Shown: positions 18,001 through 30,549 of the stretch, piece after piece
Layout of the letters: each line of letters opens with the position of its first letter
Position numbering within the stretch: the first letter of the stretch is position 1
DNA from: Patescibacteria group bacterium
Lineage (GTDB): Bacteria > Patescibacteriota > Minisyncoccia > Phycocordibacterales > UBA918
Direction: 5' to 3'
DNA: 64,000 nucleotides
Assembly: GCA_039188945.1 (NCBI GenBank)
Contig: JBCCYW010000003.1
Span: 8,573 to 72,572 of the forward strand
The notes under the pieces: model-generated
What the model was told of the DNA's origin: nothing
Seen by the model: only the letters and a program-made list of their open reading frames with translations
Database searches by the model: none
Translations under genes and position numbers: made by a program

Positions 18001-20971
18001 TATCGAAGTAAAGGTGAAAGGTACTATCGTCAGCCGTGTTAAGAACCGGCGCCCTAAAGTGCAACTCACCCTGATCACTACCAGTATCAATCCAAACTAA
18101 ATCAGTTGGTACTTCAGTAGCACCATCACTTCGCGTTACTCTGATATCACGACCGTCATTCGTAACGCCACTCCAAAAATCGTCACCAAGTGTCGACAGG
18201 TCAACGTACACTGGGAAATCAACCAAGGTCTCAGTAACTGATGTCGAAGCGATGTTAATTGCCACTCTTCCCTCCCAATTGAGATTGTAGTTGTTCTCAA
18301 CTACCGGACCATTCTCCGGGAAGAGGTTGTTTTCTACCCGCTCTTGAATAAACCGAATATCACTACCATCGTCAGCAACGTTCGTCCAGAAGTCACCAAG
18401 AGCACTGTCAATCTCAAAGAATATCTGCTGCTCAGTCAGTGTCTCGGTGCTGTTTGTGTTATCAATTTGAATTGGGATTCTGTACTGCCACTGACTTGAC
18501 CAGAATGGATCCAAGAGACCGTACTCACTACCGCCCACTGCTTCGATCCAATACTCACCACTGGAGAAAGCTGGGAAACTAACTTCCATCTTGAAGTACT
18601 TAGTTTCTCCAGGACGAATCGCAAACGTGTCAGGGGTGTGTCCATCTACCCTAAAGCTGTTCGGCACAAATTTTCGGTCAGGGCCAAAACCAAAGAACTC
18701 GCCTACTTGTTCAATAAAGCCAGGTTCTGGGAGTGTGCCTACAGCATATGTGGCAGCTTGCCAACCACCTGCATACTTAACCACTTCGTGTTCTCGTACT
18801 TTTACATTATCAACGTGACAAGCTGTGTTATCGCCATCAATTGAATTACAGGCCCGAACAATATTAGTGTTGCGACAGACATATGTCTGGGGTGTTTCGA
18901 TCGCTTCAGTTGTAGTAGCTTGTTCGCTAGTTCCAGTTGCAAGTGCTGTCGCTTGCGTGAACAAACGAGCATCTGTCAGAAGTTGAGAGGTTGTCGTCGT
19001 AGCAGTTGTGCTGGCTGATTCAGTATCTAGCGAAGCTGCTTCGGTCGAAGTAGCTTGGCTACCTTCGGACGGCTCAGATGAAGTAGCAGTTGCTTCTGGT
19101 AGCACTACAGACTCAGCACTAGTTGTTGCTTCAGTTTCGTCCGCCTCAAGTGGATCAACCAACGCCTCAGGAGTGAATGCCCGAGACATATCAAACAGTG
19201 AGTCAGAGATCGGCTCGCCAGAGTACTCCCATCCATCAGCGCAGTGATAGACAAATGGTCTGTATTCAGGAATTGTGACTTGTGTTGGTTTATTCTGATT
19301 CCATTCTTCTAGTGAGACAACCTCTCCCTTGGCATGCGGGAAGTAGGTTTGCAGTGAAAACGTATCTGTATTATTTGAGGTGTTGGTGACATTGAAGTAG
19401 GTCGTGATTTCGGTAAGACCGTTATACGTCAGCTCATCTGATTTGATGATCAAGGTTTCATCGCTATTTTCGTCGGTATTGTCAAACGTAATTTCACGCC
19501 CATCAGGTAGCACCAACACATCTCCTACCAGCGGATCAGGATTAAAGCCATCATCTTCGAGCAAAGTTGCAATGTCAATTGGTTCACCAGTATTTTCGAG
19601 TGTAAACAATTCTAACCACGCACTTTCGACAAAGAGATACTCGACGTGTTCTGGATTATTAGTGAAGCGAAGTTGGAACGTCAGATCTTTGAGAACAGCT
19701 GGGTCTTCAATTGTTGGTAGCGCAAAGAGATAGTATCCGCCATTAATACCATTTGACTGCTCTTCATCAAGTAGAATTTGACCATTTTCTACCCACGACT
19801 CTCCACCATCAAATGAGTAGCGAAGCTCTAATGACGTTACCTCATCACGAGTCTCTTTAGGGGCGCCAGCAAATGACAACCTGAATTGAGCACCGGTAAG
19901 TTCCAGCCCGTCTTCAAAAATTGGCATTGCAAAACCGGACAGAGTAAGTGTGTGGAGTGAACAGTTTTCGACACAGTCGCTCGTGCTCGTCGCCAGACTG
20001 CTGTCGTCAACCGTTTCACTGGTTGTAGCTGAAGACGGAACCTCGTCTATAACTACCTCACCCAGCAGCTCCTCAACCTCGTCTGTAAATTCATTTTCAG
20101 AACTTGTTGTTGTCGCCACCTCTTCCTCCTCAGGCACCTCTTCAACTAAATTTTCTTGTGCACTCAGTGTCTCAGTCGGTAGTATCTCAGTTACTGTTGT
20201 AGTACTTGCTGCTGCTTCTGATTCAGACACAATCTCTTCTGTATCTGTCTCAATGTCTTCACTACTAACAACCGTTTCAGTAGTGGTAGCAGCAGTAGTA
20301 AAGCCAAACACCCGAGTAACAGCACCGAAAGCAAAACTGAACAACGAATCGACTGTCTGGAGCACAGTAGTTGTTGAGGCCGCTTCTTCAGCATCTAGCT
20401 CGTTTGAGGACGTGGTCGCAGCTGAATCTGACTCAACAACATCCGGTACCTCAGGAGTTACCTCGTCTGCCTCAGAAATAGTAGGTTCGGTTGTTGTTGC
20501 AACCACCTCCACTGTTGTCGTTCCATTTTTTACCTCTGGCTCTGCGGGTACGTCAGGGGTGCTCGTGGCAACCACCTCAGTCGTCGTACTAACTTCAGTG
20601 GTAGTAGTAGCTGAAGAAGTAGCACTACCTAAAGAAATTACCGGCTCCTCTACAAGCATCACTTCTTCGTTTTCAAATTCATCTCGAAGCTCGCGCAACG
20701 TTTGATCACCAGTACTTAAGTACGCAGAATTAATTTCATTAAACTCTTGTGATAGGGCATATTGGTCGAGATTTTGGAAGGTCACCGTATCAGCATTCAC
20801 CCAGCCAACAGATTCAATTGACTCAGGGAAAACATTGACGCTACTAACCACAATCTGGCTTTCAGAAAACTGAGCAAACACTGCATATCCTGCAAAACTA
20901 GTTACCACCAGTGCTGTAAGAACAGAAACTTTCTTAATTCCAAACAAAGAAGCACTATTAAACCGCCTCAA
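1..20971 (-). CDS. Giant secreted surface protein, 3'-truncated by the window edge (>6,900 codons in window). N-terminal signal peptide; repeated DUF2341-like (FPxYxDLxxLGxxFWxxVxxDGxDIRxT...GELHFKA...YFDNPDAxAY) and LamG/concanavalin-like modules
   Basis: Own translation of the minus strand in frame with codon first bases at positions =1 mod 3. Open at the N-terminus (TTG at 20971 giving MRRFNSASLFGIKKVSVLTALVVTSFAGYAVFA-QFSE; in-frame GTG alternatives at 21043 and 21055; in-frame TGA at about 21149). Open for about 7.5 kb read codon-by-codon, and open again at positions 1-250. The ORF track lists no complete ORF in this frame over 21 kb: all 24 listed minus-strand ORFs here share one other frame (end =0 mod 3) and the plus-strand ORFs are low-complexity shadows. 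The track finder appears to need ATG plus an in-window stop, so it would miss this gene. Confidence 0.72.
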   Translation of the reverse strand, partial: MRRFNSASLFGIKKVSVLTALVVTSFAGYAVFAQFSESQIVVSSVNVFPESIESVGWVNADTVTFQNLDQYALSQEFNEINSAYLSTGDQTLRELRDEFENEEVMLVEEPVISLGSATSSATTTTEVSTTTEVVATSTPDVPAEPEVKNGTTTVEVVATTTEPTISEADEVTPEVPDVVESDSAATTSSNELDAEEAASTTTVLQTVDSLFSFAFGAVTRVFGFTTAATTTETVVSSEDIETDTEEIVSESEAAASTTTVTEILPTETLSAQENLVEEVPEEEEVATTTSSENEFTDEVEELLGEVVIDEVPSSATTSETVDDSSLATSTSDCVENCSLHTLTLSGFAMPIFEDGLELTGAQFRLSFAGAPKETRDEVTSLELRYSFDGGESWVENGQILLDEEQSNGINGGYYLFALPTIEDPAVLKDLTFQLRFTNNPEHVEYLFVESAWLELFTLENTGEPIDIATLLEDDGFNPDPLVGDVLVLPDGREITFDNTDENSDETLIIKSDELTYNGLTEITTYFNVTNTSNNTDTFSLQTYFPHAKGEVVSLEEWNQNKPTQVTIPEYRPFVYHCADGWEYSGEPISDSLFDMSRAFTPEALVDPLEADETEATTSAESVVLPEATATSSEPSEGSQATSTEAASLDTESASTTATTTTSQLLTDARLFTQATALATGTSEQATTTEAIETPQTYVCRNTNIVRACNSIDGDNTACHVDNVKVREHEVVKYAGGWQAATYAVGTLPEPGFIEQVGEFFGFGPDRKFVPNSFRVDGHTPDTFAIRPGETKYFKMEVSFPAFSSGEYWIEAVGGSEYGLLDPFWSSQWQYRIPIQIDNTNSTETLTEQQIFFEIDSALGDFWTNVADDGSDIRFIQERVENNLFPENGPVVENNYNLNWEGRVAINIASTSVTETLVDFPVYVDLSTLGDDFWSGVTNDGRDIRVTRSDGATEVPTDLVWIDTGSDQGELHFRAPVLNTADDSTFHLYFDNPDATAYASTSEFGSQNVWTNNYAAVYHFQDQGQPGQNNIGEYLDSTSNGFNAEDDTSATGTTGRLGDGVEFDIATTSGVDLVDHINIPVAVADSKLEMTYSVWYQTSNSLSSLDHTLLSGFNTSQNNEWIAWIENATQMEQFIDNSQENGNQVLLSNIGDGAWRQYVYTRSSDEFDDETRQYVDGALLYADTNIDNADQTFDINGLNIGSEQDTNVEQNNGGNQLLDGFVDEARFADGVRTDGWIAAEYTTQANPTSFYSTSTDLIAVPAGGDVWYSTSWNQRQLFTISRDNVDADITNFPVYLDLGTLGSTFFSGVASDGRDIRITTRAGVELPREVVRVDTGSGLGEVHFKTDLSSTEDNEFYIYFDNPDALAYADDDVYGAHNVWTNNFIAVYHFDQDAAGVGNDEVYLDSTSNEYHGDDENSSDDTTGIVGRGLELGDSSGDHIDLPDEALTGVTDIAVSGFYKVPVAAATDERTILSAANVVEDDEFRVALEFDGSGDDEIFFVHSANNESTGYDNGQNWGDDQWDHFLLSGDDSEDTVAFYLNGVPDGENGNGTQDEVPIDAILVANGGLVIGQEQTTVGSFDTSNQFIGLMDELRIASTTRDDNWADLEYETLANPTTFISTSTAETLQEVDFVELDYWIQHFSSSTQEADIWVQVDEIPAGGTALIWLYYGASGVTSTSNEVDTFTYSRLTELFYIVDDDVSSVSIQSLIDNNQVSFDGLATTTLNQGESISTTTVDENTIIRALGPISGTVSGQTGNTQDSTDSIAPISFATTTHAIGTNRAVNDWYAFSPFGSTTVRVFEAASASAGATFNVATSSAGTANLDITDSGQGVDGAGAIITSTLPAVVTHKNSTPGDGIVSYPPTTRDLFGVYTQNIHLSAVQGTTVDVFCSDGSSATGIAVSRGDHEAEVTCDTGADSEGAGPAARYTGSTVPVTALQQADADGNESTMFWPQMEFGTRYAMTNDAAYVAVVCSPRFGSVSLEIQDSTGGFIESATCSPNTTDPGKVLFNGGTDGDTLNYPAGYQVVSTNGVPFYAIYEDRSIQNSGTNVGDEKNLVGTVQARKFGADAFTIAFGQQEMANDADYEQLSFLWYQNGNTETPTSTWPISDSNVTEGESITGSGALQDGDVIRLRMNIEASTATGTENSAAFRLEYGAATAADQCSLIAESNWFEVGQPGSTTAAFSGFDIPLIQDGRILSSTTLASSTVFGTYEERNLSNLIQNEIGVGQVAEFDWVLQATNVDININYCFRMTRSGGAPLTTYTLYPQLETVGPPNVPTLLAFFDNERTATRTPMLEFVSSDIAGDDIDYQVQVANTVDFASPLIDRNSDDNFLEFENINNNGDKAPFSSGNQVRFTSGTSLATGTTYWWRVRADDPNGSATTSEWSSPYSFTVEDLIEVTEWYQTTGDQFSTNELSNMSTSSGEVALASSPATMTSTAIDFDDATFGNAWGEVSWSDTVTSGTSSVQVQFNDSGTWTLIPDSQIPNNSIGATSSPISISELDTSVYNEIRLVATFEGTTVSLQEWSVKWGLRVNTPTLGDSFDNEKFAGLSPVFDFTTTDPQGDNLEYELSISTDIDFLTSSSTFNSSTSPGFSAGNPYASGATVTYTTQTPLTNNTTYWWRVRAKDPNGNDSFSPWSEPDSFTASTSVSVSTWFQTTQEQFDQGELAGVIASSSDSVEITDVVGEFGTISLTNNNWTTVNTQNIYNDMVVVSTPEFDFQAGGQASGRTVRVRNKTSNSFEIKVDNYQNNFTGSTDVDYVVAETGDWTIDDGGSGFRLLAGTQESVSATQVDGYSNTVGEVITFTPAFSGIPVPITTVSTNNDSEWVSSHVDGGGTFQTEVTSSQMRVALALSRHTTSGRSGSEDIDYIVLDATTSTDVGGSVFQSLNSPDGDVDDGGAQVSISGFSTTPAITLIQNNAEDGGQGGFAQKDLGGTSNASNIFVSISEQGSLADGHTQEIVSIVAFENTAGNLTRLNAGDLTGTIAGEDIIFTDGAGPKFDNFSWVDSTPATSDILYQLQYQVSDGVYALIPDSAIPGNSTGTTTSPIDLTNVDINTYGIIRPFATLSCGGGSCPSIDNWQLEWSEGVNMSGIVYEYDRVTPVTSGTIMAAVNNGPALLNTGTIAGDGTWTLANVTAFAGDIITVWVDGAADPDEAVAVFEYDGVGDITGVTLYEQHLSLQADEDSTVFNNNLAAYDNSISGNEDIFFDVDLSGNLNVCAVGSCGNANLYIGPRTTYTASSSQTVSVTTHDFVNDGIVELDGNTFTVSGSWENNATSSTDTSTINLVATSSSETIISTESPLDFHNLSMGAGAGTATYTIATALDLSGSLTVASGTFDRGVNDISLQGNLSTGANATWLGVATTTFDGNAAATWNDDHVSSTTLQNIGNVVIDGVSKFVALTSDVKAYDITIGANDTLSGATYAFYVGGDWTNTGTFLAGSSNVEFIPDDRSYPAAIPGSADWYADISFASRLPIVVQDSEVSGALTNFPTFVDLSTLGSDFWGSVQTDGDDIRITTNDGMTELPYDLVEFDASAETGELHFLADAISSSATTTFYIYFDNPAADGYLATDTYGSYAVWRDYEAVYHFNDDFSTVGTIIPDDSGRGRDLLLLGGAMATTSGQVGVALNASGSAGYLIDTDFSWTSGDRLTTSGWYFLDDFDNETVWEWGTGDGPNDIEFRPWTGGTSGLHYFGRDDGQAAYTINPRTPSIWRHFTTIGVTSTTQFNLVYEDGVQVESVQQGGGADENPSNTGGLRVAGNAGGGAFLGYIDELRIATSSRDASWVEAEYSNQFTPTDFYATSSVEAYTPATTTDEATHNISSGGSSFFDITFADATTSPAFTEPSVVVSGDFTVATGTVALPTSKLNVGGSFINNGVFMHNNNEVEFDGSGSEVITLNGTEFLNQFYDVTFSGSGDWTFTDANATTTNLFAIEDGTVTFPSGALAIGNTLDVSGSGDFTANGGTVVFTSASSVDVTTNNAAFNNVIFGSGVLDSWYAAAWSDRVVIDIASTSVTGAMIDFPVYINLADLGSVFWANVAADGADIRMTSSNGTTELAYELVSIDTNTQTGELHFKAPMLTSGTDNRFYLYYNNVNATAYSPTDTYGRNNVWTNDYLAVYHLGEEVAGTGNIGVYTDSTGNGRDGDDFVDATGTTGFIGQGQEWDEANADYIQIATSTLDGQTDVTVSWWYQTTELNDHAVVSGANSGQFNEVLIRLDNSDEFEWFDEGTVDFVDISLINDGAWRAYHTVRDTDNNIVRFYINAEEDDQSPTLETLDAIDINDGALIIGQDQDSILGGFDGGEELDGFLDELRFSSVVRDAGWITTEYDNQFAPTSFYATSSELFTEAAPVFTLNEANADADGDVTVSGALLIAPSDTFTIGGSALNNSGTYDANNATTTFDSNDLGETIDFGTGIFYNLSFNGVGGGWTLSTTTVENNATLVTGDSFVQAPNTTLSVQNIFRNSFTAASTTWTDSTLVLTGGDYVVTDRLDSGDDYATIEVSGDSDITIWNSTISTSTILDTSSIYMPDFGGNNGELRIFGDYTRTTGAEYWSSATDFDGTDISGSPRQVDVRIASGTSVRLSGSAILNMLGSSTASTTVDAITGTFDLSLSGATLNAQYFTMTGTGVNGFELLDSVSVTNFTNGDFSIASGTTAVTVDASTINAQPSTEYPDLNFASVSGPSVNVTASGTASAFWLFSGGVGDRYGESFDDDDGDPGTIQWDDSNYAISIRGTVYADNGSTTASASVCNGVTQNVTVVLDSGPSYTAACDPTDGSFEVTGIVYVGEPKVTAYLNSEATNGAMDIFLLDELTGSGVGTGAGVTTVTRPTTIEDNSVLVAIIGKNDDPGITPPAGWTLINEFGDAANDDIYTGIWYRVVSDASSEPTSYDFNALNNNQGYSYWIGSFLNVDTTTPIDVSSGWTELLDDGTPETPSVVTTVNNTYVLSSWFVDNDVAVQVASDEGWDTRAYNIVGTNNVNLSVISRQFATPSTTQSIEMVGVPGTRDPHVGTFALQPAATPPTATTSVSAAVVTQTPLGTPTDPVYEDIAVRDSSFDQQQFATGATVVLTTPSVVTNDVLVVIIGKDDDPTVSAPAGWTEIATRGENAEADVFGGAWYRVVTDATTEPATHTFTNNDGTDEIAYWIGSLSGVDVTSPLDVATTWDYQLNDNSPAAESITTVTDKAQVFAAWMVIGDTNVDMPLDWETLVEDSLSPAGNTDRLFAVSTKLQEEFGATGDAEITSLGNQDSMTIQFAMRPQEQAVPSRIEGFDIYANQVIVRHEDIAALTIADMTRFDNDNDSDIPFTASTSTSPDLLTVLPGSGLYVWDSKQFIPGGEINLSGYGTTEQDGTLSIGNGGTLTMAGTDPVTIGGGFYGENGAVFSGASSTVTFTATNTGQTIDSRASSTFTFYDIDFTGVGGGWAVQTPIISQTGINLATGTVSGVSDVTVESGSFSGNGLVNMTGGTVAIERNNTLGGTQGWTFNNLTLGNVTDSDSTTMASDATTTVRSVLTISTNHLLDGGEATFDLTGSGNVFATNGTFQQGTSTVRYSGATPNIDRTPYYNLRIDTDAGGDVVATGPSTNLQVFNSLTVGNQGTSTLDLNTNDPALAVAELIYIGQLGTIEASDTATLEAFGSWDNDGVFAANGGTVRFGEVVSNEAIAAGSSPFADLTIDGLGTFTMTEHATVTGDMVLGAGNFTMSGGQVLSVGNTFTNSMLGGATNWTGSTLRLYGDQAYDVNAKTTSQTYGAIVTASSTQPRFWNATSTSITTNDASSVYSRNHAGVDGALNIYGEYRNSGFDDYWSYNEDFDGAALGGGARQAAVLVEAGGSVLYTGGSLTVLGSSTATTSIDALTVGTYDFRLGGSTDVNMNYYQFRDTTADGLTFSGSPDVTDLSHGDFEIAIAGGSGMTVGGSVISANPAPNYTNIRFATTTAISAFNVTATGSAASSWRFVNVPGNLAGEDFDNDPGDDPGLLVWEDSAAIINIEGTVYSDDGVTESGIGICDGATANIFLSMDGLTFASTSCAIGSADYTFSGISYGLSDVITVYIGNGAGSGVVVSQDPLSSIGNMDIYENRVIVRHESGDPLTIDDMDTWDSDDDADIPFTATGGSPDTLVLPSNHKLVVWESKTFAPDGDVTVSGGGAGADFDGTVELLSNATFQMAAGEEHSIGGSLITAAGAVFDASTATTTFTTTGAARTININDDDFYNLVFNGTGSWTVTDTTLTTGSNFLIQNGAVTLPSGTTTIGASFVNSGGSFDSNGGRIVFDATSSGNTVTFGGSDTRSVLFAGTGGGWTMADTNATTTDYFRVATGSVTLPSGVLAVGADFIVNDTITNNSGTVRLATSSGAYTVTLSGNDLNNLFIDNFGSYTFSDVSASLLGDLDITTGASLAIGDGTFSIGGSLAATGTLATASSSILFNSGDTGELIYPGNNVFYDVVFGGALGGWTVGANATVTNNLSLSAATTYIQSSGTTLYVGGVFTNNIGAATTWLGSTLVLDSGSIYETNSKSTPAELYDTVILGENTDVSTWNASSTNLTVPVTSSLYSQDHANNDGDLAIFGDYNITSGTEYWSYATDFDGAALGGSSRAVDVFIASGATTTLVSGTLEIIGIANSTTTISTPGSGQYSIQVLAGVFNAEYFDFEDLDTNGLQFSGTPTITSLDNGGFTQALNGASLITLASTTLNANAGLIITGSRFTDGGFTGGINVNLDATTTNSWTFTGHTGNLSGEVYDQDGTDACSSIRWDDSDCLLTEQAHYRWRNDDGGEGAPPGTWYDNNWSSRQRIRIDNNDLSTTTNAAVKMVVPYDADMQTDFDDLRFTDSSGVTEIDHWQERFSTGVSADVWVEVPTLGADKVTEIYMYYGNVSASSTSSSSEVFIVVDDFEDNNLDEYGGDKGLFSTNATFAFGGGFGLDTSGFETSRAPDGIFSTTSVVSQGEIIRYMQYVDTTPGAGAENEACAMFGVQTPGLDNDNYGVCLELFGTERISLVKNVEST

Positions 20972-21086
20972 TTGGTCTTTGAGCGCTGTAAATATCGATA
21001 TATTGAATTTTTGTCTTGTTTTGTGAGACTCTTTTTTGTTCACACCACAAGCCACCCAAGATTCTGCGCAGGCAGAAATTGGGCTA

Positions 21087-21098
21087 ATTATAATTATA
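21087..21098 (-). promoter_or_regulatory. Two overlapping TATAAT -10-like hexamers upstream of the giant gene
   Basis: Minus-strand reading gives GATATAATTATAATTAGCCC just downstream of the 21101-21123 hairpin and upstream of candidate start codons. No clear -35 box. Confidence 0.35.
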
Positions 21099-21100
21099 TC

Positions 21101-21123
21101 GCGCAGTCCTAGATGGACTGCGC
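21101..21123. terminator. Perfect 9-bp inverted repeat gcgcagtcc-tagat-ggactgcgc. Probable terminator of the 21159..22739 gene, or an operator
   Basis: Seen directly. Lies 36 bp downstream of the stop of the upstream minus-strand gene and is followed on the minus strand by an A/T-rich tract. Confidence 0.5.
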
Positions 21124-21158
21124 GATACGCCTCAAATATGTGGATTGGTCAGTGTTTT

Positions 21159-22739
21159 TTACTTCAGAATCGACTTTACATCATTGATTTCTTTTTCTAT
21201 CAAGGTCTCTGATACTTCGAGTGCCTGGTTAAGTCCTTCGACCGCTTCTTTTTCACCTTTTGAGAGTCGTTTTCGTTTGGTGATACTGTTTACTTGGTCA
21301 TAAATTTCATCACGCAGGGCTGAGAATATCTTCTCCATTTGATCCTGAATTTCACGAGTTTCTTTTCTCAGTTTTTCTTCCCGAAGATGATTCTGTTTCT
21401 TCTCGTACCAGATGAATGCAATCAACATGATGATAATGAGCACGAGCACCATGATCAGGATGTTTACTGCGCTGAAGAATGCCCAGAAACTTGACTCTTC
21501 GTCCACCTCTTGCGGTGGCAGCCAGCCAGCTGTGATGAGCACTGGTACCGAACTCTCTGTCTCGTTACCAGCCTTGTCAGAAGCAACTACTCGTACCGTG
21601 TATGTACCATCTTCAAGTTCACCAAGCAGGTACCCGAGGCGTGCTTCGTCAGGAGTGATTTCAAAAGGTTCCTGGTCAGCAATTGTCATCTCATACACCT
21701 CGATACCTGATGTTTCATCGTTTGCCTCGAAGGTCAGAAGCGGGAATGACGAGGCAGTAGTACCGGCCTGTACATTGATCTCAAAGTCTTCTGGCGGTGT
21801 TGTGTCAATCTGAATCTTTCGATTAAGGACCGTTCCCCATCCAACTTGGTTGCGGAATTTGATACTCAAGTATTGAACTCCATCAGAGACCACATCACTG
21901 TTAATGATGAACTCTTCGATCGGCGGATCATAAACGGCATCCTCGTTCTCTTCGGGCTGATTTTCCGAAGACGTGGCAATTTCAACCGCAACTACATTTA
22001 CATCAAATGGTAGTGTCCAGCTGAAAATACCATCGGTTGTACTGTACCAAGTATCTGGATCAAGGAATTCTTGCGAACCAATTTCTGGTGCACGAGGCGG
22101 ATCACCAAAGGCGATGGCTGCGTTGTCTGCATCTGGCTCAGGTTCTGGTTCCGGAGTAGGAGTTGGGGTCGGGTCAGGTGTTGGTATCGGCGCACCACCA
22201 ACCGTAAACGTGGCGCCACTAGCATTCTCAAATACATCAGTACCAAGACCATCTGCTGCTAAAACTGACGCTGAGTTGAAGGTTACCGCGCCATCACCTT
22301 CACCAACCGCTCGCCACGTTACCGTGACTAGTGTGGAATCTGCGGTGAAAGGAGTTGGACTACCTCCCCCGAAGGTAATGGTCCCGGCTGAGTTTGAGAA
22401 TTCAGGTTCAGTTGTCCAAAGCGAGAACACCGAGCCATCTCGAGAGACACTCACTACCTGCAAAACAGCTGTATCAAATGAGAGATTTGCTTCAACAGCG
22501 TTCACGTTATCACCGCTTGGTAACACTCGAACGGTAGACGTAAATGTTTGACCATTATTGTACGTTCCGCTAGCAGGTGACACTGAGAGATCTGCCGCCT
22601 TGGCGGTAGTAGCACCAAGCACGAAAAAGGCTACGGCAACAACCGCTCCTAAGAACAAGGTATTCCGAATTAAACTGAAAAGTACAGACTGAAGAACAAA
22701 CATAGCTTCCCTCGGTGGATTACTCCGCTGCCGATACAT
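21159..22739 (-). CDS. Membrane-anchored surface protein with an N-terminal cohesin-like domain, Pro/Thr/Glu linker, Ig-like region, C-terminal TM helix and charged coiled-coil tail
   Basis: ORF track 526 aa. Segment LSVSPASGTYNNGQTFTSTVRVLPSGDNVNAVEANLSFDTAVLQVVSV...GTITFGG...TVTWRAVGEGDGAVTFNSASV matches cohesin-domain architecture. PTPDPTPTPTPEPEPEP linker. TM helix VNILIMVLVLIIIMLIAFIWY. Start may be the internal Met (MFVLQSV...). Confidence 0.55.
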   Translation of the reverse strand: MYRQRSNPPREAMFVLQSVLFSLIRNTLFLGAVVAVAFFVLGATTAKAADLSVSPASGTYNNGQTFTSTVRVLPSGDNVNAVEANLSFDTAVLQVVSVSRDGSVFSLWTTEPEFSNSAGTITFGGGSPTPFTADSTLVTVTWRAVGEGDGAVTFNSASVLAADGLGTDVFENASGATFTVGGAPIPTPDPTPTPTPEPEPEPDADNAAIAFGDPPRAPEIGSQEFLDPDTWYSTTDGIFSWTLPFDVNVVAVEIATSSENQPEENEDAVYDPPIEEFIINSDVVSDGVQYLSIKFRNQVGWGTVLNRKIQIDTTPPEDFEINVQAGTTASSFPLLTFEANDETSGIEVYEMTIADQEPFEITPDEARLGYLLGELEDGTYTVRVVASDKAGNETESSVPVLITAGWLPPQEVDEESSFWAFFSAVNILIMVLVLIIIMLIAFIWYEKKQNHLREEKLRKETREIQDQMEKIFSALRDEIYDQVNSITKRKRLSKGEKEAVEGLNQALEVSETLIEKEINDVKSILK

Positions 22740-22742
22740 CTA

Positions 22743-23210
22743 TTATGACATACGTCGGCGGCGTTTATCTTGAGTAATCTTCAGTTTTACTTTTTCTTTT
22801 TCTTCAGGTTTTAGAAGTGGTAGAACAAGGATCAAAACTCCATTTTTAATTTTTGCTTCAGCTTTCTCGATTTCAACACTCTCAGGCAAAATAATTCGTC
22901 GATAGAATTCTCCCCAAACACACTCTTCAGTAAAGAAAGCCCCGGCCGGCTTCTTTTTAGGAAACACGAGATACTCAGGGCGCAGACGCCGTCCTTCAAT
23001 CAGCACAATGTCCGCATCACCCTCAATTGAGACATGCACATCGTTTAGGTCGGCCCCAGCTGCTTGCGCGTAAATCACAATCATCTGTTCGGTTTGGTAG
23101 ACGTCAACATCAAGCTGCGCGATTTTATCAACCGCTGTTTCTTCTTCACTTGATTGCAGTGACGCGCCAGCGCGGACACCCCGACCTTTTAGTCTTTGCA
23201 GAAAGGACAT
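22743..23210 (-). CDS. Hsp20/alpha-crystallin family small heat-shock protein
   Basis: ORF track 155 aa. LDVDVYQTEQMIVIYAQAAGADLNDVHVSIEGD..LVIEG....GEFYRRIILPESVEIEKAEAKIKNGVLILVLPL is the alpha-crystallin domain signature. Gaps of 4 and 56 nt to neighbours. Confidence 0.85.
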   Translation of the reverse strand: MSFLQRLKGRGVRAGASLQSSEEETAVDKIAQLDVDVYQTEQMIVIYAQAAGADLNDVHVSIEGDADIVLIEGRRLRPEYLVFPKKKPAGAFFTEECVWGEFYRRIILPESVEIEKAEAKIKNGVLILVLPLLKPEEKEKVKLKITQDKRRRRMS

Positions 23211-23265
23211 AGATAGCTAAATAATACCTTGTTGCTGTATAAATAAGGTGCGTTTTACCCACATC

Positions 23266-25245: not shown

Positions 25246-25248
25246 AGG

Positions 25249-26052
25249 CTACTGCACGCAGCGAAAACCAACTGCTGTACCCGAGAAACTCGCCTTTGTC
25301 TGCATATGTGAGGTATAGATACCGGCGTCTCGCTGACTGCCATAAAATCCTCCTTTCATAATTCCGTACGTACCCGTGTTGTCAGACCAAAAGTAGTCTC
25401 CAGCAAACAGCTCACCAGGAGTTTCTGTAGTAGCTACAGCAATTCCTTCACTATCAACCTCACTAACATAGCCCTCTTCAGGTAAAGCTCTATTTTTATA
25501 TTGTCCAGCGATCACATCACCGCTGACCCACTCCCAGACATTTCCAACCATATCTGACACACCGCTGGGAGTTCGACAGTTTTCATACTCTCCAGTCTCA
25601 CGAAGTTCTCGACTACCCACATTACACTCTTGATCTGAGTTTATGAGGGCTTGTGCTACTACGTACCATTCAGACGCAGCTGGCAAGCGAGCTTCGCGAC
25701 GAGCACAGATAGCACTGGCTTGATCTCGGGTGACGTGGCGCCAGGGTAAAACACCCGGCTCAGATCGTCCGGAGCAAGTCTGCATTTGGAGATTCTGTTG
25801 TGTCTCATTGCTTGTGGCTGGATGAGCATATAAACAATCTCCTCCAGCACTTACCTCAAATTGATCGATACACGAAAAAGTAATCCCTGCTGCGACAGCG
25901 ACCATACCATCTGGACAAGCTGTTGCGTCTGTCGCGATGAGTTGTCCAAGTAACGTAGACTTCGAACCTCGCAATGTATCGGTGGCATCAATACCAAAAG
26001 CCGTTATCACAACCGCTCCTACCACTACTGCTATACCTTTTACCCATTTCAT
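25249..26052 (-). CDS. FGE-sulfatase (SUMF1/formylglycine-generating-enzyme family) domain protein, N-terminal TM/signal. Paralog 1 of 3
   Basis: ORF track 267 aa. MVGNVWEWV...GGFYGS...GFRCV motifs of the FGE-sulfatase domain. TM/signal KGIAVVVGAVVITAFGI. Confidence 0.75.
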   Translation of the reverse strand: MKWVKGIAVVVGAVVITAFGIDATDTLRGSKSTLLGQLIATDATACPDGMVAVAAGITFSCIDQFEVSAGGDCLYAHPATSNETQQNLQMQTCSGRSEPGVLPWRHVTRDQASAICARREARLPAASEWYVVAQALINSDQECNVGSRELRETGEYENCRTPSGVSDMVGNVWEWVSGDVIAGQYKNRALPEEGYVSEVDSEGIAVATTETPGELFAGDYFWSDNTGTYGIMKGGFYGSQRDAGIYTSHMQTKASFSGTAVGFRCVQ

Positions 26053-26053
26053 A

Positions 26054-26878
26054 TTACTGACTTATCGCACAACGAAAACCAATCGCTTCTCCAGCAAAAC
26101 TAGGATCAATATGAGCGTGTGTAGTAAACACCCCAGCATCTTCCCGGCTGCCATAAAATCCACCGCGCATGACGACATATCTACCTGAATCATCAGGCGA
26201 CCAAAAATAATCATCACCAAATAATTCACTCGGTGATGCGCTGGTGGTGTCAGCCAAGCCATTGCCTGACACCGATGTCACATATCCTTCTTCTGGTAGC
26301 TCGCGCTGCGCAACTGAACCTTCGACAACCTCAGCATCGACCCACTCCCAGACATTGCCGACCATATCAAACGCCTCAACTCCAGATACGCATGCTGACC
26401 ATGTCCCAGTCTCGGTCTTCGTACCGGCGATGTTACATGCACCTCCGGTATCTGGCGTTGCCTGACTAGCCACATACCATTCACGTAAAGTAGGTAACCG
26501 TTTACCAGCTTTCCGGCACAAGGCTTCAGCTTGATGCTTTGCCACGTTAGTCCATGGTTGCACGTCTGGTTCTGATACCGGTTCACAACTGCCAGAGTTA
26601 AGGTTCTCGGTAGTTGCGGCAGCACTTCTTGGTAGCGAGGTTGGACAAGAACGATCTGGGCTCACTTCATACTGATCGATACAAAACGAAGCGGCACCAT
26701 CGTCAACAAATACCATACCTTCCGGGCAACTCTGGCGAGATGCGCGATCAGCTAGTATGCCAAGAGCCGACTGTGATCCGCGAAGCAGGTCTGTAGCGTC
26801 AATCGTAAAACTTGTGAGTGCAATAATACCCACACCAACAAAAATAAACCTCGCCCCTCCAATGACGAAACGCTTCAT
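26054..26878 (-). CDS. FGE-sulfatase domain protein, paralog 2 of 3
   Basis: ORF track 274 aa. MVGNVWEWVDAEV...RGGFYGS...GFRCA. 1-nt gap to paralog 1. Confidence 0.75.
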   Translation of the reverse strand: MKRFVIGGARFIFVGVGIIALTSFTIDATDLLRGSQSALGILADRASRQSCPEGMVFVDDGAASFCIDQYEVSPDRSCPTSLPRSAAATTENLNSGSCEPVSEPDVQPWTNVAKHQAEALCRKAGKRLPTLREWYVASQATPDTGGACNIAGTKTETGTWSACVSGVEAFDMVGNVWEWVDAEVVEGSVAQRELPEEGYVTSVSGNGLADTTSASPSELFGDDYFWSPDDSGRYVVMRGGFYGSREDAGVFTTHAHIDPSFAGEAIGFRCAISQ

Positions 26879-26905
26879 TCTCTACAGTATACGACCGGGC
26901 TAGGG

Positions 26906-27730
26906 TTACAGGACAATGTCTTGTACACACCGGAAGCCGATACCATTAGTCTTAAGCGTAGGCGCCACTGAGTAATTTTGAGAAAAAATACCAGCATCAC
27001 TACCCGCCCCATAAAAACCACCGCGTAACACCCCACGAACTCCTTCTCTGTTTACCCATGCATAATCATCGCCAAACTCAGGAACCGGCGTCGGTGAAGT
27101 AGAAGCAACCACTCCGTACTGATCAACCATTGCCACAAAGCCTGGTTCGGGAAGTGTTATCTCTTCACGAACGACACCCTCACGGACAGTCTCATTCGTC
27201 CACTCCCAAACATTTCCAACTAAGTCATAGACTCCTGACTGACTAGAGCAACGACCAGTTCCGGTCATTTCAGGATTAGAACCACTGTCAACCACACAAT
27301 CAGACTGCTCTGTAAGTCCAAGCGCTGTTCGATACCATTCTTCTGAGCTGGGCAAACGTTTGCCAACTCTGGCACATAACTGCTCTGCTTGGGTTTGACT
27401 CACAAACCGCCACGGCATAGCTTCGGCTTCTGAAACAGGCTCACAGCTTACTTCGTCAATATTCTGTCTACTCAATTGCTCATTACGGCTATCACGCTGA
27501 GGACAAGCTGACCCTGGAGAAGATTCATATTGATCAAAACAAACCGCGTGTGTACCGAACACCATACGCACGGTACCGACAGGACAAACGTTAACTCCCT
27601 CACTGACTAAGCCACGCAATAAACTTGAGTTGCCCTGAAACACATCTGCCGCTTGCAAACCAAGGGTTGAGATCACTACCGCTGCTCCACCAACCAGGAG
27701 GGTTTTAGGTAGCCTGCGAACGTTGCTCAT
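26906..27730 (-). CDS. FGE-sulfatase domain protein, paralog 3 of 3
   Basis: ORF track ORF 26906..27781. LVGNVWEWT...RGGFYGA...GFRCV. Start trimmed to the internal Met (MSNVRRLPKTLLVGGAAVVIS) to avoid a 77-nt overlap with the upstream gene. Confidence 0.7.
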   Translation of the reverse strand: MSNVRRLPKTLLVGGAAVVISTLGLQAADVFQGNSSLLRGLVSEGVNVCPVGTVRMVFGTHAVCFDQYESSPGSACPQRDSRNEQLSRQNIDEVSCEPVSEAEAMPWRFVSQTQAEQLCARVGKRLPSSEEWYRTALGLTEQSDCVVDSGSNPEMTGTGRCSSQSGVYDLVGNVWEWTNETVREGVVREEITLPEPGFVAMVDQYGVVASTSPTPVPEFGDDYAWVNREGVRGVLRGGFYGAGSDAGIFSQNYSVAPTLKTNGIGFRCVQDIVL

Positions 27731-28145
27731 ACCGAAGCTGTTCTCGACCACGTACGTAGTCGAGAATATAATTAAGCACAATTAGTACCAATAGGATAAA
27801 GAGGATGGTGCTTAGTACGTACGTTGAAATATCGATATCTTGAGTTGTACCAGTTTGCGTCGATAGATTTATGGCAATTTCTCGGTCGGCTACTGCTGCC
27901 TCGCGCTCATCCAGTTCGCGTTCTCGCTCAGTAATTGCAGCGGTCATTTGGTTAAGTTCAGTTGGCGCCACACCAACACTCACACCAACCGCGGCGCCTA
28001 AATAATTTTGGGTTGATTGTGACAACTGGCTAGTTGTTGTTGATAACAAGCCACTATCAAAGACAAGAATGAAAGCAGTAACAACAGCGGCTACCCGAAG
28101 TAAGACATGGTAAAACGGTACATTCATAGGTCCACTATAGCACAA
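27705..28145 (-). CDS. Small membrane protein with central coiled coil (hypothetical)
   Basis: ORF track 146 aa. N- and C-terminal hydrophobic segments flank ERERELDEREAAVADREIAINL. Confidence 0.45.
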   Translation of the reverse strand: MCYSGPMNVPFYHVLLRVAAVVTAFILVFDSGLLSTTTSQLSQSTQNYLGAAVGVSVGVAPTELNQMTAAITERERELDEREAAVADREIAINLSTQTGTTQDIDISTYVLSTILFILLVLIVLNYILDYVRGREQLRYEQRSQAT

Positions 28146-28157
28146 GCACGTACTGTG

Positions 28158-29228
28158 CTACGCAAAGAGCAGTAGCAAAACAATCAGGAAGAGAGCCGTG
28201 ACAACCAGCATCACAATCATGACCATAAAGAGTGTTGATGTGCCGCGAGACTGGCGACGCCGCACTAATCGGCGACCGCCACCATACGCAGCCAAGGTTC
28301 GGCGGATGTAGGCCCGAACTCCAAAGTACGTAGCGAGCAGTAACACCGCAAGCACCCCGAGAGCTGGACCAATAATATCCATTGGCAAAATCCAGAAAGA
28401 GACAGTACTGAATATCGTTGATTTTCGTCCGTCCGCTCCGTACGTCAGACTAACTACAGCATTGTACCGACCAAAACCAGGACCTTCATCTTCCCAACTA
28501 ACAACAAAATCTCGATCAGTTCCTGGGAATACTCCCCCTTCAGATTCATTTAGGGTTAGTAAGGCAACCCGTTCACCGAACATATTGAACACCTCAAGCG
28601 GACCAAATGGTCGAACCAGGACGTTTCCAGCATTCCTAATCGTAGCCGTAAATGCAACATCAGTTGAACCATAGATATAATTGTCAGTTGAGAACGAGCG
28701 TAGCTGAGCACTCTCAACCGCATCCCCCGCAACACGGATACTCACAATATTAGCCACTTCATACCCAACTGCAGCACCGACCGTTCGAAGTCGAGGTGGA
28801 TCAACCGAAACAAACACTCCACCGAAGTGACTTCCAGGAGAGGCGTCTTCAGGGACACGCAACGTAAACGAGACCTCTTGTTCACTACTGGCGCCAAGGG
28901 TTATTTCTTCAGTGGATAGTTCAATCCACTCGGACAGTTCAAAGCCAGTTTTTTCAGTATTTTCATTTGCGAACACTGGTACACCACCATCGCGAACACC
29001 AATGATATCACGCTTAAACAGGTAGATAGTTTGTTCGACGTCAGCCAAGTTACTCACCGTAACGGTATACTGCTTTTCTTCACCCGGCACTGCCGGTTCC
29101 TCAATCGTGGCGGGCTTAATACCAATACCTGCTGAACCCTGCGCCAATGCAGATTCTGCCGTAAATAACCCCATCACTGCTAGTGACAGAGCAATAAGAA
29201 AAGTCGTTCGCTTCATTCCGAGTAACAT
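28158..29228 (-). CDS. Cell-surface protein with signal peptide, beta-rich ectodomain, C-terminal TM anchor and Arg-rich tail. Possibly DUF916/DUF3324-like
   Basis: ORF track 356 aa. Signal peptide MKRTTFLIALSLAVMGLFTAESALA. GIGIKPATIEEPAVPGEEKQYTVTVSN. C-terminal WILPMDIIGPALGVLAVLLLATYF then RRTLAAYGGGRRLVRRRQSR. Family assignment is tentative. Confidence 0.5.
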   Translation of the reverse strand: MLLGMKRTTFLIALSLAVMGLFTAESALAQGSAGIGIKPATIEEPAVPGEEKQYTVTVSNLADVEQTIYLFKRDIIGVRDGGVPVFANENTEKTGFELSEWIELSTEEITLGASSEQEVSFTLRVPEDASPGSHFGGVFVSVDPPRLRTVGAAVGYEVANIVSIRVAGDAVESAQLRSFSTDNYIYGSTDVAFTATIRNAGNVLVRPFGPLEVFNMFGERVALLTLNESEGGVFPGTDRDFVVSWEDEGPGFGRYNAVVSLTYGADGRKSTIFSTVSFWILPMDIIGPALGVLAVLLLATYFGVRAYIRRTLAAYGGGRRLVRRRQSRGTSTLFMVMIVMLVVTALFLIVLLLLFA

Positions 29229-29365
29229 ATAGACTAACGAATATCCCTCTATGGTATCACTACTTGAGAGAACACTCTAAAGAATCTTTGTATAACTTAA
29301 AATCCATACATCTCAAGTGAGTTAACGCATAAAATACCCGCGAGCATACCTATATACGTATAAGA

Positions 29366-29396: not shown

Positions 29397-29418
29397 CTAC
29401 GTTTGCAGGGTTGATCAC

Positions 29419-30549
29419 CTAGAAGGTCGGGGTTGCAATGTAAGTGAGGGTAGCGTTGTAGTCATCACCCGCTTCCTGGAGACCAGTAATCTCGATCTGA
29501 TAGCCTACCGTGGTCGAACCAACACTGTTTGTTGTACCATCAGCCGGACCATCGTGTTCGAAGATCTGACGTGGCGTCGTGCTGGCCGCGACCCAACATC
29601 CTTCCGTAGCTGCTGCTGGACAACCTTGGAATTCCCCAGCGTTCAGGTCATCAGCTGATGTAAGACCCCAGTGACCATAGGTATCCTCTTGCAAGATAGT
29701 CTCTGCCGGGTCAGCCCAGTCACCTGGTGTATTAACGTATGTACCATCAGAGAAACCATCAATGTCAGCACCAGAAGCTGAACTCAACTGCTGATCAGTT
29801 TCAACGGTTACTACGAATCCGTTACGGGCGTTCGTTGAAACATTAAGTCGTTGAGCAAGTGTCTCAATAATATCTTGAGTTACGACACCGAATGGAATTG
29901 CGGTCGGTGTAGTTGATCCAGTAGTTGATGTACCGTTTACTGGCGTAGACGTAGCCAAGCCACTAACGGTGAAGTCGAACGAGGTAAGGACTTCTGCTGT
30001 AACAAGTACGGTATCAACAATTGCTACTCGTGTAGCACCAGTGTCTTGATCACCAGCGGTAAGGGTAATTTCGTACGAGGTGTTTGACGTAGATGGGTTA
30101 GTGATTTGGTCACCTGAACCACCTGCGTTAGCACCGATTCGAACAGTAGTAGTCGAACCAGCTGCAATTGGGTTTACCATAGTGATGGTAACGGTTGGAC
30201 TAGCTACTACTGCAGTGTAGTCTGTACCACCGCCGGTAAGAAGGACTCCGTCATCGAGGACGGCTACGTCATCAGCGCCTACGCCACCGAAAACGAATTC
30301 ACCACCCGCAACTGGGAACGTGAGGACGATAGTCTCCGCTGCCAAGACTGAGTCAACAACAGCGAACTCTAACTCATGGTCTGACCCGGCACTTGGTGCT
30401 GAGTCAGTTAGGGTGTCCTGAAACCCTACGACGTTTGCTGCTTCAGCACTATGTGTGTACACCCCTACTGAGAGAAGTAACAGTGCAGACGCAACGAGCA
30501 TCGCGACTACTCGGTGCGCAGAGCCAACGTAAGTTGGTAATGCGAACAT
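29419..30549 (-). CDS. Secreted Thr/Gly/Ala-rich surface protein (hypothetical). Its N-terminal domain is paralogous to the N-terminus of the dockerin protein
   Basis: ORF track 376 aa. Signal peptide VAMLVASALLLLSVGVYTHSAEA. VVGFQDTLTDSAPSAGSDHELEFAV resembles ILTYSDTLSDSTPGDPANHTIGFTT in 23266..25245. Confidence 0.55.
   Translation of the reverse strand: MFALPTYVGSAHRVVAMLVASALLLLSVGVYTHSAEAANVVGFQDTLTDSAPSAGSDHELEFAVVDSVLAAETIVLTFPVAGGEFVFGGVGADDVAVLDDGVLLTGGGTDYTAVVASPTVTITMVNPIAAGSTTTVRIGANAGGSGDQITNPSTSNTSYEITLTAGDQDTGATRVAIVDTVLVTAEVLTSFDFTVSGLATSTPVNGTSTTGSTTPTAIPFGVVTQDIIETLAQRLNVSTNARNGFVVTVETDQQLSSASGADIDGFSDGTYVNTPGDWADPAETILQEDTYGHWGLTSADDLNAGEFQGCPAAATEGCWVAASTTPRQIFEHDGPADGTTNSVGSTTVGYQIEITGLQEAGDDYNATLTYIATPTF

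Follow-up and report, generated by a model that had tools for sequence, protein, structure and literature searches.

The three tandem genes A, B and C of the window (the whole 64-kb stretch of DNA that was analysed, from an ultra-small bacterium of the CPR/Patescibacteria) encode proteins of the FGE fold which, to judge from their sequences, are pseudo-enzymes with respect to FGE chemistry because the metal-binding residues of FGE have been lost. Our preferred explanation, which we hold tentatively, is that they are non-catalytic binding modules with a C-type-lectin fold, accessory to a conserved surface apparatus. We regard surface binding modules as the most likely of the explanations considered because the catalytic cysteines are missing, the proteins most resemble the ligand-binding variable proteins of DGRs, and their genes lie in a widely conserved cluster encoding pilus-like proteins and a giant adhesin. 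A, B and C constitute a new variant within a known fold family.

Three exported FGE-like paralogs

The three genes are consecutive on the minus strand:

25249..26052, minus strand: FGE-like paralog C, 267 aa; PF03781 E 2.2e-10
26054..26878, minus strand: FGE-like paralog B, 274 aa
26906..27730, minus strand: FGE-like paralog A, 274 aa from ATG; PF03781 E 2.3e-15

A and B are separated by 27 nt and B and C by a single nucleotide. From its ATG, gene A overlaps the upstream gene for a small TM protein by 26 nt, and an alternative TTG start at 27781 would extend it to an ORF of 291 aa (26906-27781). Paralogs A, B and C match the Pfam FGE-sulfatase family PF03781 with 57.4, 48.4 and 41.1 bits, respectively (E 2e-15, 1e-12 and 2e-10), all above the gathering score of 23.3 bits, and the MVGNVWEW, RGGFYG and GFRC motifs are invariant among them. 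The ORFs therefore agree with the first-pass annotation, which had described three tandem FGE-domain paralogs of 267, 274 and about 274 aa with gaps of 1 and 27 nt and the motif series MVGNVWEW...GGFYG...GFRC, each protein having its own N-terminal TM or signal segment and a Cys-containing variable insert.

Each protein begins with a single hydrophobic segment, followed by an ectodomain of the FGE-subtype C-type-lectin fold with eight cysteines; on the basis of this segment and the conserved cysteines, A, B and C are taken to be extracytoplasmic. The N-terminal segment may be either a signal-anchor or a cleavable signal peptide, prediction being compatible with both, and the conserved I-x-A-x-D that follows it (I26-x-A28-x-D30) matches the -3/-1 rule of signal peptidase cleavage. 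Only a small Cys-rich subdomain lies between the hydrophobic segment and the FGE-like core, and AlphaFold models the juxtamembrane segment with low to moderate confidence as a helix, with no strand. Neither a lipobox Cys of the PorK/GldK/GldJ type nor a T9SS/gliding context was found for these proteins. The eight Cys columns are kept at 98% or more among 51 family members, and in the family alignment they and the scaffold residues are 98-100% conserved. Two of the eight, C148 and C163, are both conserved and bracket a variable loop, which accounts for the insert noted at first pass.

Loss of the FGE catalytic residues

When the family profile is aligned with PDB structures, Ser333, Cys336 and Cys341 of human FGE (hFGE) correspond to Asp247, Gly249 and a gap, respectively, and the stretch from RGG to GFRC is free of Cys in the 12 triplet sequences and throughout the 51 family members. 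The proteins, at 267-274 aa, also lack the DinB-type iron domain with the 3-His site found in EgtB, OvoA and SenA. An enzyme of the EgtB/OvoA/SenA type was rejected on the grounds that the NCBIfam matches are partial and sub-threshold (22-32 bits against cut-offs of 360-420, covering about 75 residues) and fall in the shared FGE-like core; no FGE-specific NCBIfam model matched A, B or C. The first-pass annotation had proposed a protein-modification or metal-dependent oxidase role directed at neighbouring surface proteins, to be given up if the paralogs lacked all metal-binding residues, and had suggested a search of the neighbours for CxPxR-type target motifs. This proposal is not supported: the Cu-binding Cys pair and Ser of FGE are missing, which by that standard makes the paralogs pseudo-enzymes with respect to FGE chemistry, and the iron domain is absent. 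A search of the neighbouring surface proteins for [CS]xPxR returned a single SNPPR, in the part of the cohesin ORF that precedes the signal peptide.

The positions that line up with the FGE motif YNIVGNAWEW are retained (D171, G174 and E178), and we take their equivalents to be Ca2+ ligands in hFGE. Asp247, Gly249 and Tyr251/His254 are conserved among B and C orthologs. These positions could be read as a sign that A, B and C are extracytoplasmic enzymes with an active site unlike that of FGE, modifying pilin-like or other surface proteins. The superfamily is indeed rich in enzymes (FGE, EgtB, OvoA, SenA), the NCBI name for the protein is 'SUMF1/EgtB/PvdO family nonheme iron enzyme', and an unexplained modification of PamA Ser356 has been reported for Pam pili (bioRxiv 10.64898/2026.03.03.709456). 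However, outside the generic PF03781 scaffold motifs no polar residue is common to all 51 members, the segment that forms the canonical FGE active site ranks with the most poorly conserved of the ectodomain when lineages are compared, the fold is closest to the non-enzymatic DGR variable proteins and pFGE, and the nearest structural neighbours are non-enzymes. Taken with the loss of the Cys pair and Ser, the lack of an iron-binding domain and the near-absence of target motifs, these observations make a non-FGE enzyme unlikely.

A conserved module of putative surface-filament genes

The genes on either side of A, B and C are also on the minus strand:

2..21148, minus strand: giant surface protein, open frame of at least 7049 aa that continues beyond the left end of the window
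21159..22739, minus strand: cohesin-domain protein, 526 aa; PF00963 Cohesin E 3.1e-7
22743..23210, minus strand: Hsp20 small heat-shock protein; PF00011 E 1e-10; no signal segment
23266..25245, minus strand: secreted dockerin protein, 659 aa from GTG (ATG at 25194); PF00404 Dockerin_1 E 1.2e-6
27705..28145, minus strand: small two-TM protein, 146 aa from TTG, about 140 aa from ATG 28127
28158..29228, minus strand: WxLIP-like protein, 356 aa; PF06030 WxLIP_PGBD E 1.6e-7
29419..30549, minus strand: pilin-like secreted two-beta-sandwich protein, 376 aa; NF058581 CPR_Pam_pilin_C E 2.3e-3

The surface-protein setting recognised at first pass is evident here, with the dockerin, Hsp20, cohesin and giant proteins on one side and the two-TM, WxLIP-like and secreted two-domain proteins on the other. 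The same module (Pam-pilin-like, WxLIP-like two-Ig, small two-TM, 0-3 FGE-like, dockerin, Hsp20, cohesin and a protein of >7000 aa, in that order) is conserved in at least 25 loci from Kaiserbacteria, Paceibacteria, Parcubacteria and Falkowbacteria MAGs, and at every locus examined the FGE-like genes are syntenic with surface-filament genes. A scan of positions 20800-31000 for promoters and terminators gave the same counts as shuffled sequences, so no operon boundaries were drawn from it. A literature search returned nothing on cohesin/dockerin in Parcubacteria or on FGE-sulfatase in Patescibacteria.

The pilin-like protein may be a pilin, with a distant relationship to Pam pilins through their C-terminal domain. 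NF058581 is matched by 48 of 67 orthologs (best E 6.4e-8), the copy in the window scoring 18.1 bits against a cut-off of 55 bits. AlphaFold2 predicts two beta-sandwich domains (pLDDT 87.9), and a Foldseek search of a PDB copy with this model returned only generic two-Ig adhesins (TM at most 0.3) and no Pam entry, so that the relationship to Pam rests on the weak NCBIfam matches. There are at least 1805 homologs, every one of which is annotated as hypothetical. The N-terminal domain of the dockerin protein is homologous to that of the pilin-like protein (hhalign probability 99.7, E 1.3e-25, 220 columns), a relationship visible only with profiles, the pairwise BLASTP match being not significant (E 0.12). 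The WxLIP-like protein, with its signal peptide, Ig-like domains and C-terminal TM helices, is a candidate membrane-anchored strand-complementing chaperone: PF06030 is matched by 22 of 30 orthologs, and the ortholog profile matches EfmWxLIP1 in the PDB (9i25_C, 9i1y_A; E 1.6e-6). The cohesin protein has a signal peptide and a TM segment near its C-terminus (residues 425-443) followed by a charged tail, and is a candidate membrane anchor for the dockerin protein. The Hsp20 gene is conserved in place between the dockerin and cohesin genes. The giant protein contains DUF2341, Ig_Rha78A_N and Pentaxin domains, and its orthologs (5708-7578 aa) occupy the same position in relatives.

The small two-TM protein, whose hydrophobic segments (residues 11-29 and 110-128) lie on either side of a polar or coiled region, had no family match in profile searches. 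It always adjoins the FGE-like gene or genes, its orthologs lying beside them in 24 loci.

Paralog history and copy number

Positional orthologs of A in the related loci L001, L003, L005 and L007-L010 are 43-58% identical, and the C clade is monophyletic in an NJ tree. A, B and C arose by an old expansion specific to their lineage, within which the copies are orthologous by position; elsewhere there is a single FGE-like copy, or there are duplicates of independent origin. Per module, the FGE-like genes number between none and three, having been duplicated independently and repeatedly, and one genome retains the module without any. Adaptive accessory components, unlike essential enzymes, typically vary in this way. 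An inverse relation between the copy numbers of WxLIP and FGE-like genes was considered and dropped, being broken by L013 (1/1), L025 (3/3) and others.

Copy number also bears on a structural or assembly role, in which A, B and C together with the two-TM protein would form a membrane platform that anchors or terminates a Pam-like filament or holds the giant protein. This role would be analogous to that of the FGE-fold PorK ring of the T9SS or of the PamR anchor, and the conserved juxtamembrane segment (I26-x-A28-x-D30...) could serve as a donor strand or help the proteins to oligomerise. We nevertheless consider it improbable, given that an obligatory part is hard to square with the range of copy numbers and with the genome that has dispensed with the gene, that the lipobox and T9SS context of the PorK type are missing, and that the juxtamembrane segment is modelled as a helix rather than a strand.

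A scaffold shared with DGR targets

Outside the CPR locus, the closest relatives by sequence (L030, L040 and L042, with about 27-30% identity over the whole ectodomain) are DGR targets, their TR/VR mismatches falling at template adenines in 16 of 16, 16 of 17 and 15 of 15 cases, respectively, which indicates that the FGE-like scaffold serves elsewhere as a diversifiable binding site. CPR genomes are in general rich in DGRs. The possibility that A, B and C are themselves DGR targets within the window was rejected, as a repeat search of the whole window found no template-like repeat of their 3' ends and Pfam found no reverse transcriptase in any of its sizeable ORFs. The likeness of fold, the three DGR-target homologs and the general abundance of DGRs could still be accommodated by a DGR lying outside the window. 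This is very improbable, however: when the 3' 210 nt of 122 FGE-like ORFs were compared with their own loci by blastn, the only repeats in 25 related CPR loci were between paralogs and showed no adenine bias, and the segment equivalent to the DGR variable region (VR) is conserved within ortholog groups whose overall identity is 45-58%, which is not the pattern of ongoing hypermutation.

Across lineages, few stretches of the ectodomain are as poorly conserved as this VR-equivalent segment (residues 241-266), yet it is fixed inside each ortholog group. It holds three of the seven paralog-specific conserved positions, and A is set apart from B and C at positions 27, 225, 251, 254 and 265, all of them conserved. 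As read from the alignment, the conservation pattern matches that of a putative binding surface carried on a fixed scaffold.

No sulfatase in the window

The sulfatase domain PF00884 is absent from all sizeable ORFs of the window, as the first-pass annotation had stated, and the Pfam listings made for the genes called at eight loci likewise contain no sulfatase. With catalytic residues, sulfatase and (bar the one pre-signal SNPPR) substrate motif all missing, the classic FGE/sulfatase pathway was rejected, in line with the earlier view that this is not classic sulfatase maturation. That A, B and C might be canonical FGEs maturing a sulfatase encoded elsewhere in the genome, as the above-threshold PF03781 match and the automatic JGI names ('formylglycine-generating enzyme required for sulfatase activity') could suggest, can safely be set aside, being already contradicted by the missing catalytic Ser-Cys-Cys; the lack of sulfatases in the window and at these loci, the constant synteny with surface-filament genes and partial NCBIfam matches that are to EgtB/SenA models also speak against it.

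Proposed role of A, B and C

As non-catalytic binding modules, A, B and C would be C-type-lectin-fold ectodomains of the FGE subtype situated outside the cytoplasmic membrane, held by the N-terminal segment or exported through it. They would act as a copy-number-variable accessory of a Paceibacteria/Parcubacteria surface apparatus built from a Pam-pilin-like subunit, a WxLIP/PapD-like chaperone, the two-TM protein, a cohesin-dockerin pair, Hsp20 and the >7000-aa protein. Their task would be binding rather than chemistry, with a ligand, perhaps a molecule on the surface of the host cell or a part of the apparatus itself, recognised by the C-terminal surface equivalent to the DGR variable region. 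The specificities of A, B and C would be partly different, and the proteins would be physically associated with the filament.

A more ambitious version, which we think distinctly doubtful, makes A, B and C the target-recognition heads of a Paceibacteria surface machine in which a Pam-like donor-strand filament is joined by a cohesin-dockerin anchor and a giant adhesin. These heads would be 'germline-encoded' counterparts of DGR receptors, diversified by repeated gene duplication in place of retrohoming, and would hetero-oligomerise through the N-terminal TM/juxtamembrane segment (possibly as a donor strand) and the two-TM protein so as to select the host cell of the episymbiont. If this were true, the machine would be one previously undescribed in Paceibacteria.

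CPR/Patescibacteria are thought to live attached to hosts, and very little is known of the molecules with which they recognise these hosts. It was not until 2026 that a first CPR-specific pilus (Pam) was described, and that in other classes (bioRxiv 10.64898/2026.03.03.709456); the present locus suggests a related but richer apparatus in Paceibacteria/Parcubacteria, of which a lectin-fold family built on the scaffold of FGE and DGR variable proteins is a recurrent part that varies in copy number. Were A, B and C binding heads, they would be concrete candidates for determinants of host specificity and would lend themselves to a comparison of retroelement mutagenesis with gene duplication as ways of diversifying receptors. 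The analysis also corrects a misleading automatic annotation (FGE for sulfatase, or nonheme iron enzyme) carried by thousands of metagenomic proteins.

Comparison with known systems

The neighbouring genes look like a divergent version of the Pam pilus system (bioRxiv 10.64898/2026.03.03.709456), to which their matches are weak. The WxLIP-like neighbour, a candidate PapD/FimC-like two-domain chaperone, has an architecture that fits PamC/PamD (two Ig domains and a C-terminal TM helix). Reports of Pam pili come chiefly from Saccharimonadia and Microgenomatia; their listed components include no FGE-like, cohesin, dockerin, Hsp20 or giant protein, and the description does not mention FGE, sulfatase, formylglycine, SUMF or lectin, although an undescribed 'tail fibre-like protein' is present in the Pam neighbourhood network (bioRxiv 10.64898/2026.03.03.709456). 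The WxL/WxLIP (DUF916-DUF3324) clusters of Firmicutes have the same combination of WxLIP_PGBD and C-terminal TM helix as the 356-aa neighbour (PMC10599100; 9i25, 9i1y), and WxLIP is proposed to insert a beta-strand into its partner (PMC10599100). No FGE-like genes are described in those clusters (PMC10599100), and no WxL-domain protein was detected at the present locus.

PorK/GldK (9mzu, 9myj) is an FGE-fold lipoprotein that forms a ring in the T9SS of diderm Bacteroidota with PorN as its partner, whereas here there is no lipobox, no T9SS and a different (CPR) cell envelope. FGE itself (SUMF1; bacterial Cu-FGEs 6muj, 6s07, 2q17) shares with A, B and C the PF03781 fold, two cysteines (one in GFRC, the other following the LC.K.GKRLP helix) and the residues aligned to GNxWEW. 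In contrast to FGE, the three paralogs lack the Cu-binding Cys pair and Ser and have an additional N-terminal disulfide-rich subdomain and an N-terminal hydrophobic segment. The catalytically inactive paralogue of human FGE, pFGE/SUMF2 (1y4j), belongs to the sulfatase pathway of the eukaryotic ER lumen and, unlike A, B and C, has no membrane segment and is unrelated to filaments or adhesins. The DGR variable proteins (TaqVP 5vf4, Mtd 1yu0, TvpA 2y3c) are alike in their FGE-subtype C-type lectin fold, and the C-terminal region of A, B and C likewise ends in GFRC. The differences from these proteins are that A, B and C have no template repeat, reverse transcriptase or adenine-biased variation, that their VR-equivalent segment is fixed in each ortholog group, and that their genes, embedded in a pilus/adhesin locus, diversify through duplication (1-3 copies) and not through retrohoming.

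Three FGE-fold paralogs in tandem

The first-pass annotation described three consecutive, membrane-anchored paralogs with a formylglycine-generating enzyme (FGE) domain within a surface-protein operon.

The three FGE-like genes (A, B and C) of the window.
26906-27781 (-), FGE-like A, 291 aa from TTG, or 274 aa from ATG at 27730
26054-26878 (-), FGE-like B, 274 aa
25249-26052 (-), FGE-like C, 267 aa

All three match PF03781 (FGE-sulfatase) above the Pfam gathering score (E = 2e-15, 1e-12 and 2e-10 for A, B and C), are separated by 27 nt and 1 nt, and are 37-46% identical to one another within the window. The GNVWEW, RGGFYG and GFRC motifs and eight invariant cysteines are common to all three, and each has a single N-terminal hydrophobic segment, so the description is accurate as to domain, motifs and spacing. 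As to anchoring, the hydrophobic stretch is followed by a conserved I26-x-A28-x-D30 that is compatible with the -3/-1 rule; anchor and cleavable signal peptide are indistinguishable with the tools used.

Predicted fold and proposed role

An AlphaFold2 model of B built from the family alignment (pLDDT 94.2, pTM 0.83) predicts an N-terminal helix (residues 2-47) and, after it, a globular domain; the structures that the model matches best are variable proteins from diversity-generating retroelements (DGRs).

Structural matches to the B model, with score.
TaqVP, 19.1 (193 residues aligned)
Mtd, 16.8
pFGE, 16.6
TvpA, 16.4
CalU17, 16.4
ToxD, 16.1
PvdO, 15.5
EgtB, 15.4
PorK (T9SS ring protein), 15.4

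TaqVP, whose C-type lectin fold is of the FGE subtype, has no FGE catalytic triad and is regarded as a binding protein (PMC6328139). On the most economical reading, held at slightly less than an even chance, A, B and C would be non-catalytic lectin-fold modules displayed outside the membrane, binding through paralog-specific faces and accessory to an apparatus of Pam/WxL-like filament, cohesin-dockerin pair and giant adhesin. Domain identity, the loss of catalytic residues, fold neighbours, synteny, orthology and the absence of DGR and sulfatase come directly from tool results; the binding function, the ligand and any physical association are inferred. A structural or anchoring role shared with the neighbouring two-TM protein, as in PorK or PamR, is unlikely.

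Loss of the catalytic residues

When human FGE was aligned with a profile of the 122-sequence family, Ser333, Cys336 and Cys341 fell on Asp247, Gly249 and a gap, and no cysteine lies between RGG and GFRC in any member of the 51-sequence family set. The Cu-binding cysteines of FGE are thus not retained, and with no DinB-type N-terminal domain found in A, B or C by NCBIfam models, the metal-dependent oxidase role proposed earlier is not borne out. Enzymes of the EgtB, SenA or OvoA iron type were rejected as candidates on the same missing domain and on NCBIfam matches confined to the shared core (22-32 bits against cut-offs of 360-420). By sequence, the closest PDB entry is pFGE/SUMF2, the catalytically inactive paralogue.

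A protein-modification role had also been proposed. CxPxR-type targets were sought in the neighbouring surface proteins, where the only [CS]xPxR is one SNPPR in the pre-signal region of the cohesin ORF. Pfam detected neither a sulfatase, as the annotation had rightly stated, nor a reverse transcriptase in any sizeable ORF of the window, including an open frame of at least 7049 aa. That A, B and C are extracytoplasmic enzymes with an unrecognised activity on surface proteins is unlikely. Canonical FGEs, which the PF03781 matches might suggest, were rejected on the replaced Ser/Cys/Cys positions and can practically be dismissed.

Relation to diversity-generating retroelements

In a scan covering one genome per species, close full-length relatives came only from Patescibacteria-type MAGs (L006-L029) and weaker ones from many phyla; the family comprises ~108 clusters at 50% identity with E <=1e-30, inside a superfamily of ~18,000 clusters. 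For each of 122 FGE-like ORFs, a second copy of the 3'-terminal 210 nt was sought within the same locus. Three distant relatives carry a downstream repeat of ~115-126 nt in which the mismatches are almost all adenines in the second copy, and these are textbook template/variable repeat (TR/VR) pairs, marking DGR targets in FGE-like genes of MAGs.

VR/TR pairs in distant relatives, with mismatches at template adenines.
L030 (Babeliales), 4667-4781 / 5300-5414, 16/16
L040 (Woesearchaeota), 4464-4582 / 5093-5211, 16/17
L042 (Altiarchaeota), 2041-2166 / 3108-3233, 15/15

The alignment of their proteins with A, B and C spans the whole ectodomain and puts the variable-region equivalent at residues 238-270. 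In the window and the 25 related CPR loci, 3'-end repeats were found only between paralogs and without adenine bias. It follows that the window family is related to a DGR-target scaffold and is itself undiversified. That A, B and C are DGR targets served by a remote template, as the VR/TR pairs of these relatives might suggest, is very improbable.

In one related locus (L007), the 3' ends of B and C are 84% identical over 147 nt (2577-2723 vs 3445-3601), far above the rest of these genes, a pattern which suggests gene conversion between tandem paralogs.

History of the triplet

Same-position orthologs (A/A 43-58%, B/B 48-57%, C/C 44-58%) are closer to each other than are paralogs within one genome, identity between positions being 33-45%. 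A neighbour-joining tree (51 sequences, 25 loci) resolves A, B and C as one clade each within the window's lineage; two loci carry A and C without B, lineages further away have a single copy, and L014, L020 and L025 show independent duplications. Loci seeded on the neighbouring pilin-like protein contain 2, 1 and 0 copies. The FGE-like gene thus recurs and has been expanded repeatedly, yet is dispensable.

Conservation across the family is at least 98% in the scaffold and in all eight Cys columns, and is among the lowest of the ectodomain in the VR-equivalent segment. Only seven positions are conserved within A, B and C yet differ between them, three of them in this segment (A/B/C: 251 F/Y/Y, 254 N/H/H, 265 G/A/A).

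A conserved surface module

Locus look-ups and phmmer mapping revealed a module conserved in Kaiserbacteria, Paceibacteria, Parcubacteria and Falkowbacteria MAGs.

Gene order of the module, with window coordinates.
1. Pilin-like protein, 1-2 copies; 29419-30549 (-), at least 1805 homologs, all annotated hypothetical
2. WxLIP-like protein, 1-3 copies; 28158-29228 (-), PF06030 and C-terminal TM helices
3. Small two-TM protein
4. FGE-like gene(s), 0-3 copies
5. ABC exporter, in some loci; absent from window
6. Dockerin protein; 23266-25245 (-), N-terminal domain homologous to that of the pilin-like protein
7. Hsp20
8. Cohesin protein
9. Giant protein, 5700-7600 aa; open frame 2-21148 (-), at least 7049 aa, running off the left window end

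In many relatives (L001, L003, L005, L009, L087) the exporter (ABC_membrane+ABC_tran, ~590 aa) separates the last FGE-like gene from the dockerin gene; in the window only 3-54 nt lie between C and the dockerin gene. In L087, an MgtE gene is inserted before the single FGE-like gene. L086 (Parcubacteria bacterium OLB19, JZEL01000010.1) has the pilin-like, small TM, ABC, dockerin, Hsp20, cohesin and giant genes and no FGE-like gene within 10 kb; since several of its genes are split, this is either a poor assembly or a decaying locus.

The dockerin and pilin-like N-terminal domains are related by profile comparison (hhalign probability 99.7, E 1.3e-25), undetected by pairwise BLAST, and share the mature N-terminal motif SDTLSDSxP....NHTIxF. 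The cohesin protein has a C-terminal TM segment, which makes it plausible that a membrane-anchored cohesin holds the pilin-related dockerin protein; the searchable literature yielded no report of such a pair in Parcubacteria. A cytoplasmic-type Hsp20 lies between the two genes, and the trio (21159-25245 (-)) is kept in nearly all related loci. The giant frame contains DUF2341, Ig_Rha78A_N and Pentaxin/Laminin_G-type domains, and in relatives its orthologs (5708-7578 aa) likewise follow the cohesin gene. Between the cohesin stop and the probable giant-gene start, a strong hairpin (21096-21128 (-); 14 bp, 8 G-C pairs) may be an attenuator or mRNA-stability element. Upstream, a block at 30860-37053 (-), kept alongside the module in relatives, encodes a sortase, a CAP-domain protein, an S24 (LexA/UmuD-like) peptidase, NUDIX, GH18 and an IMS/UmuC-type polymerase; the peptidase and the polymerase together look like umuDC.

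Comparison with known systems

The fold family is already known, as are pseudo-FGE and CLec binding proteins. The searched literature held no report of the conserved, N-terminally anchored, eight-Cys subfamily or of its fixed place in the Paceibacteria surface-apparatus locus, and both therefore appear undescribed. Since Mtd is a phage tail-fibre CLec protein, the 'tail fibre-like protein' of the Pam pilus network could be a member of the same FGE/CLec family; this otherwise undescribed protein is at the centre of the pamA neighbourhood network (bioRxiv 10.64898/2026.03.03.709456).

The pilin-like protein is modelled as a signal peptide and two beta-sandwich domains. NCBIfam NF058581 ('Pam pilus system pilin subunit') weakly matches 48 of 67 orthologs (best E 6.4e-8) and scores 18.1 bits on the window copy against a 55-bit cut-off. 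The WxLIP-like ortholog profile matches the solved EfmWxLIP1 structure, and the architecture fits those of the strand-inserting partner described in WxL clusters (PMC10599100) and of PamC/D, the membrane-anchored PapD-like chaperones of the Pam pilus (bioRxiv 10.64898/2026.03.03.709456). Pam pilins were reported mainly in Saccharimonadia and Microgenomatia, and their description mentions no FGE-like, cohesin or dockerin component (bioRxiv 10.64898/2026.03.03.709456). The Paceibacteria surface-apparatus locus seems to extend this newly described system.
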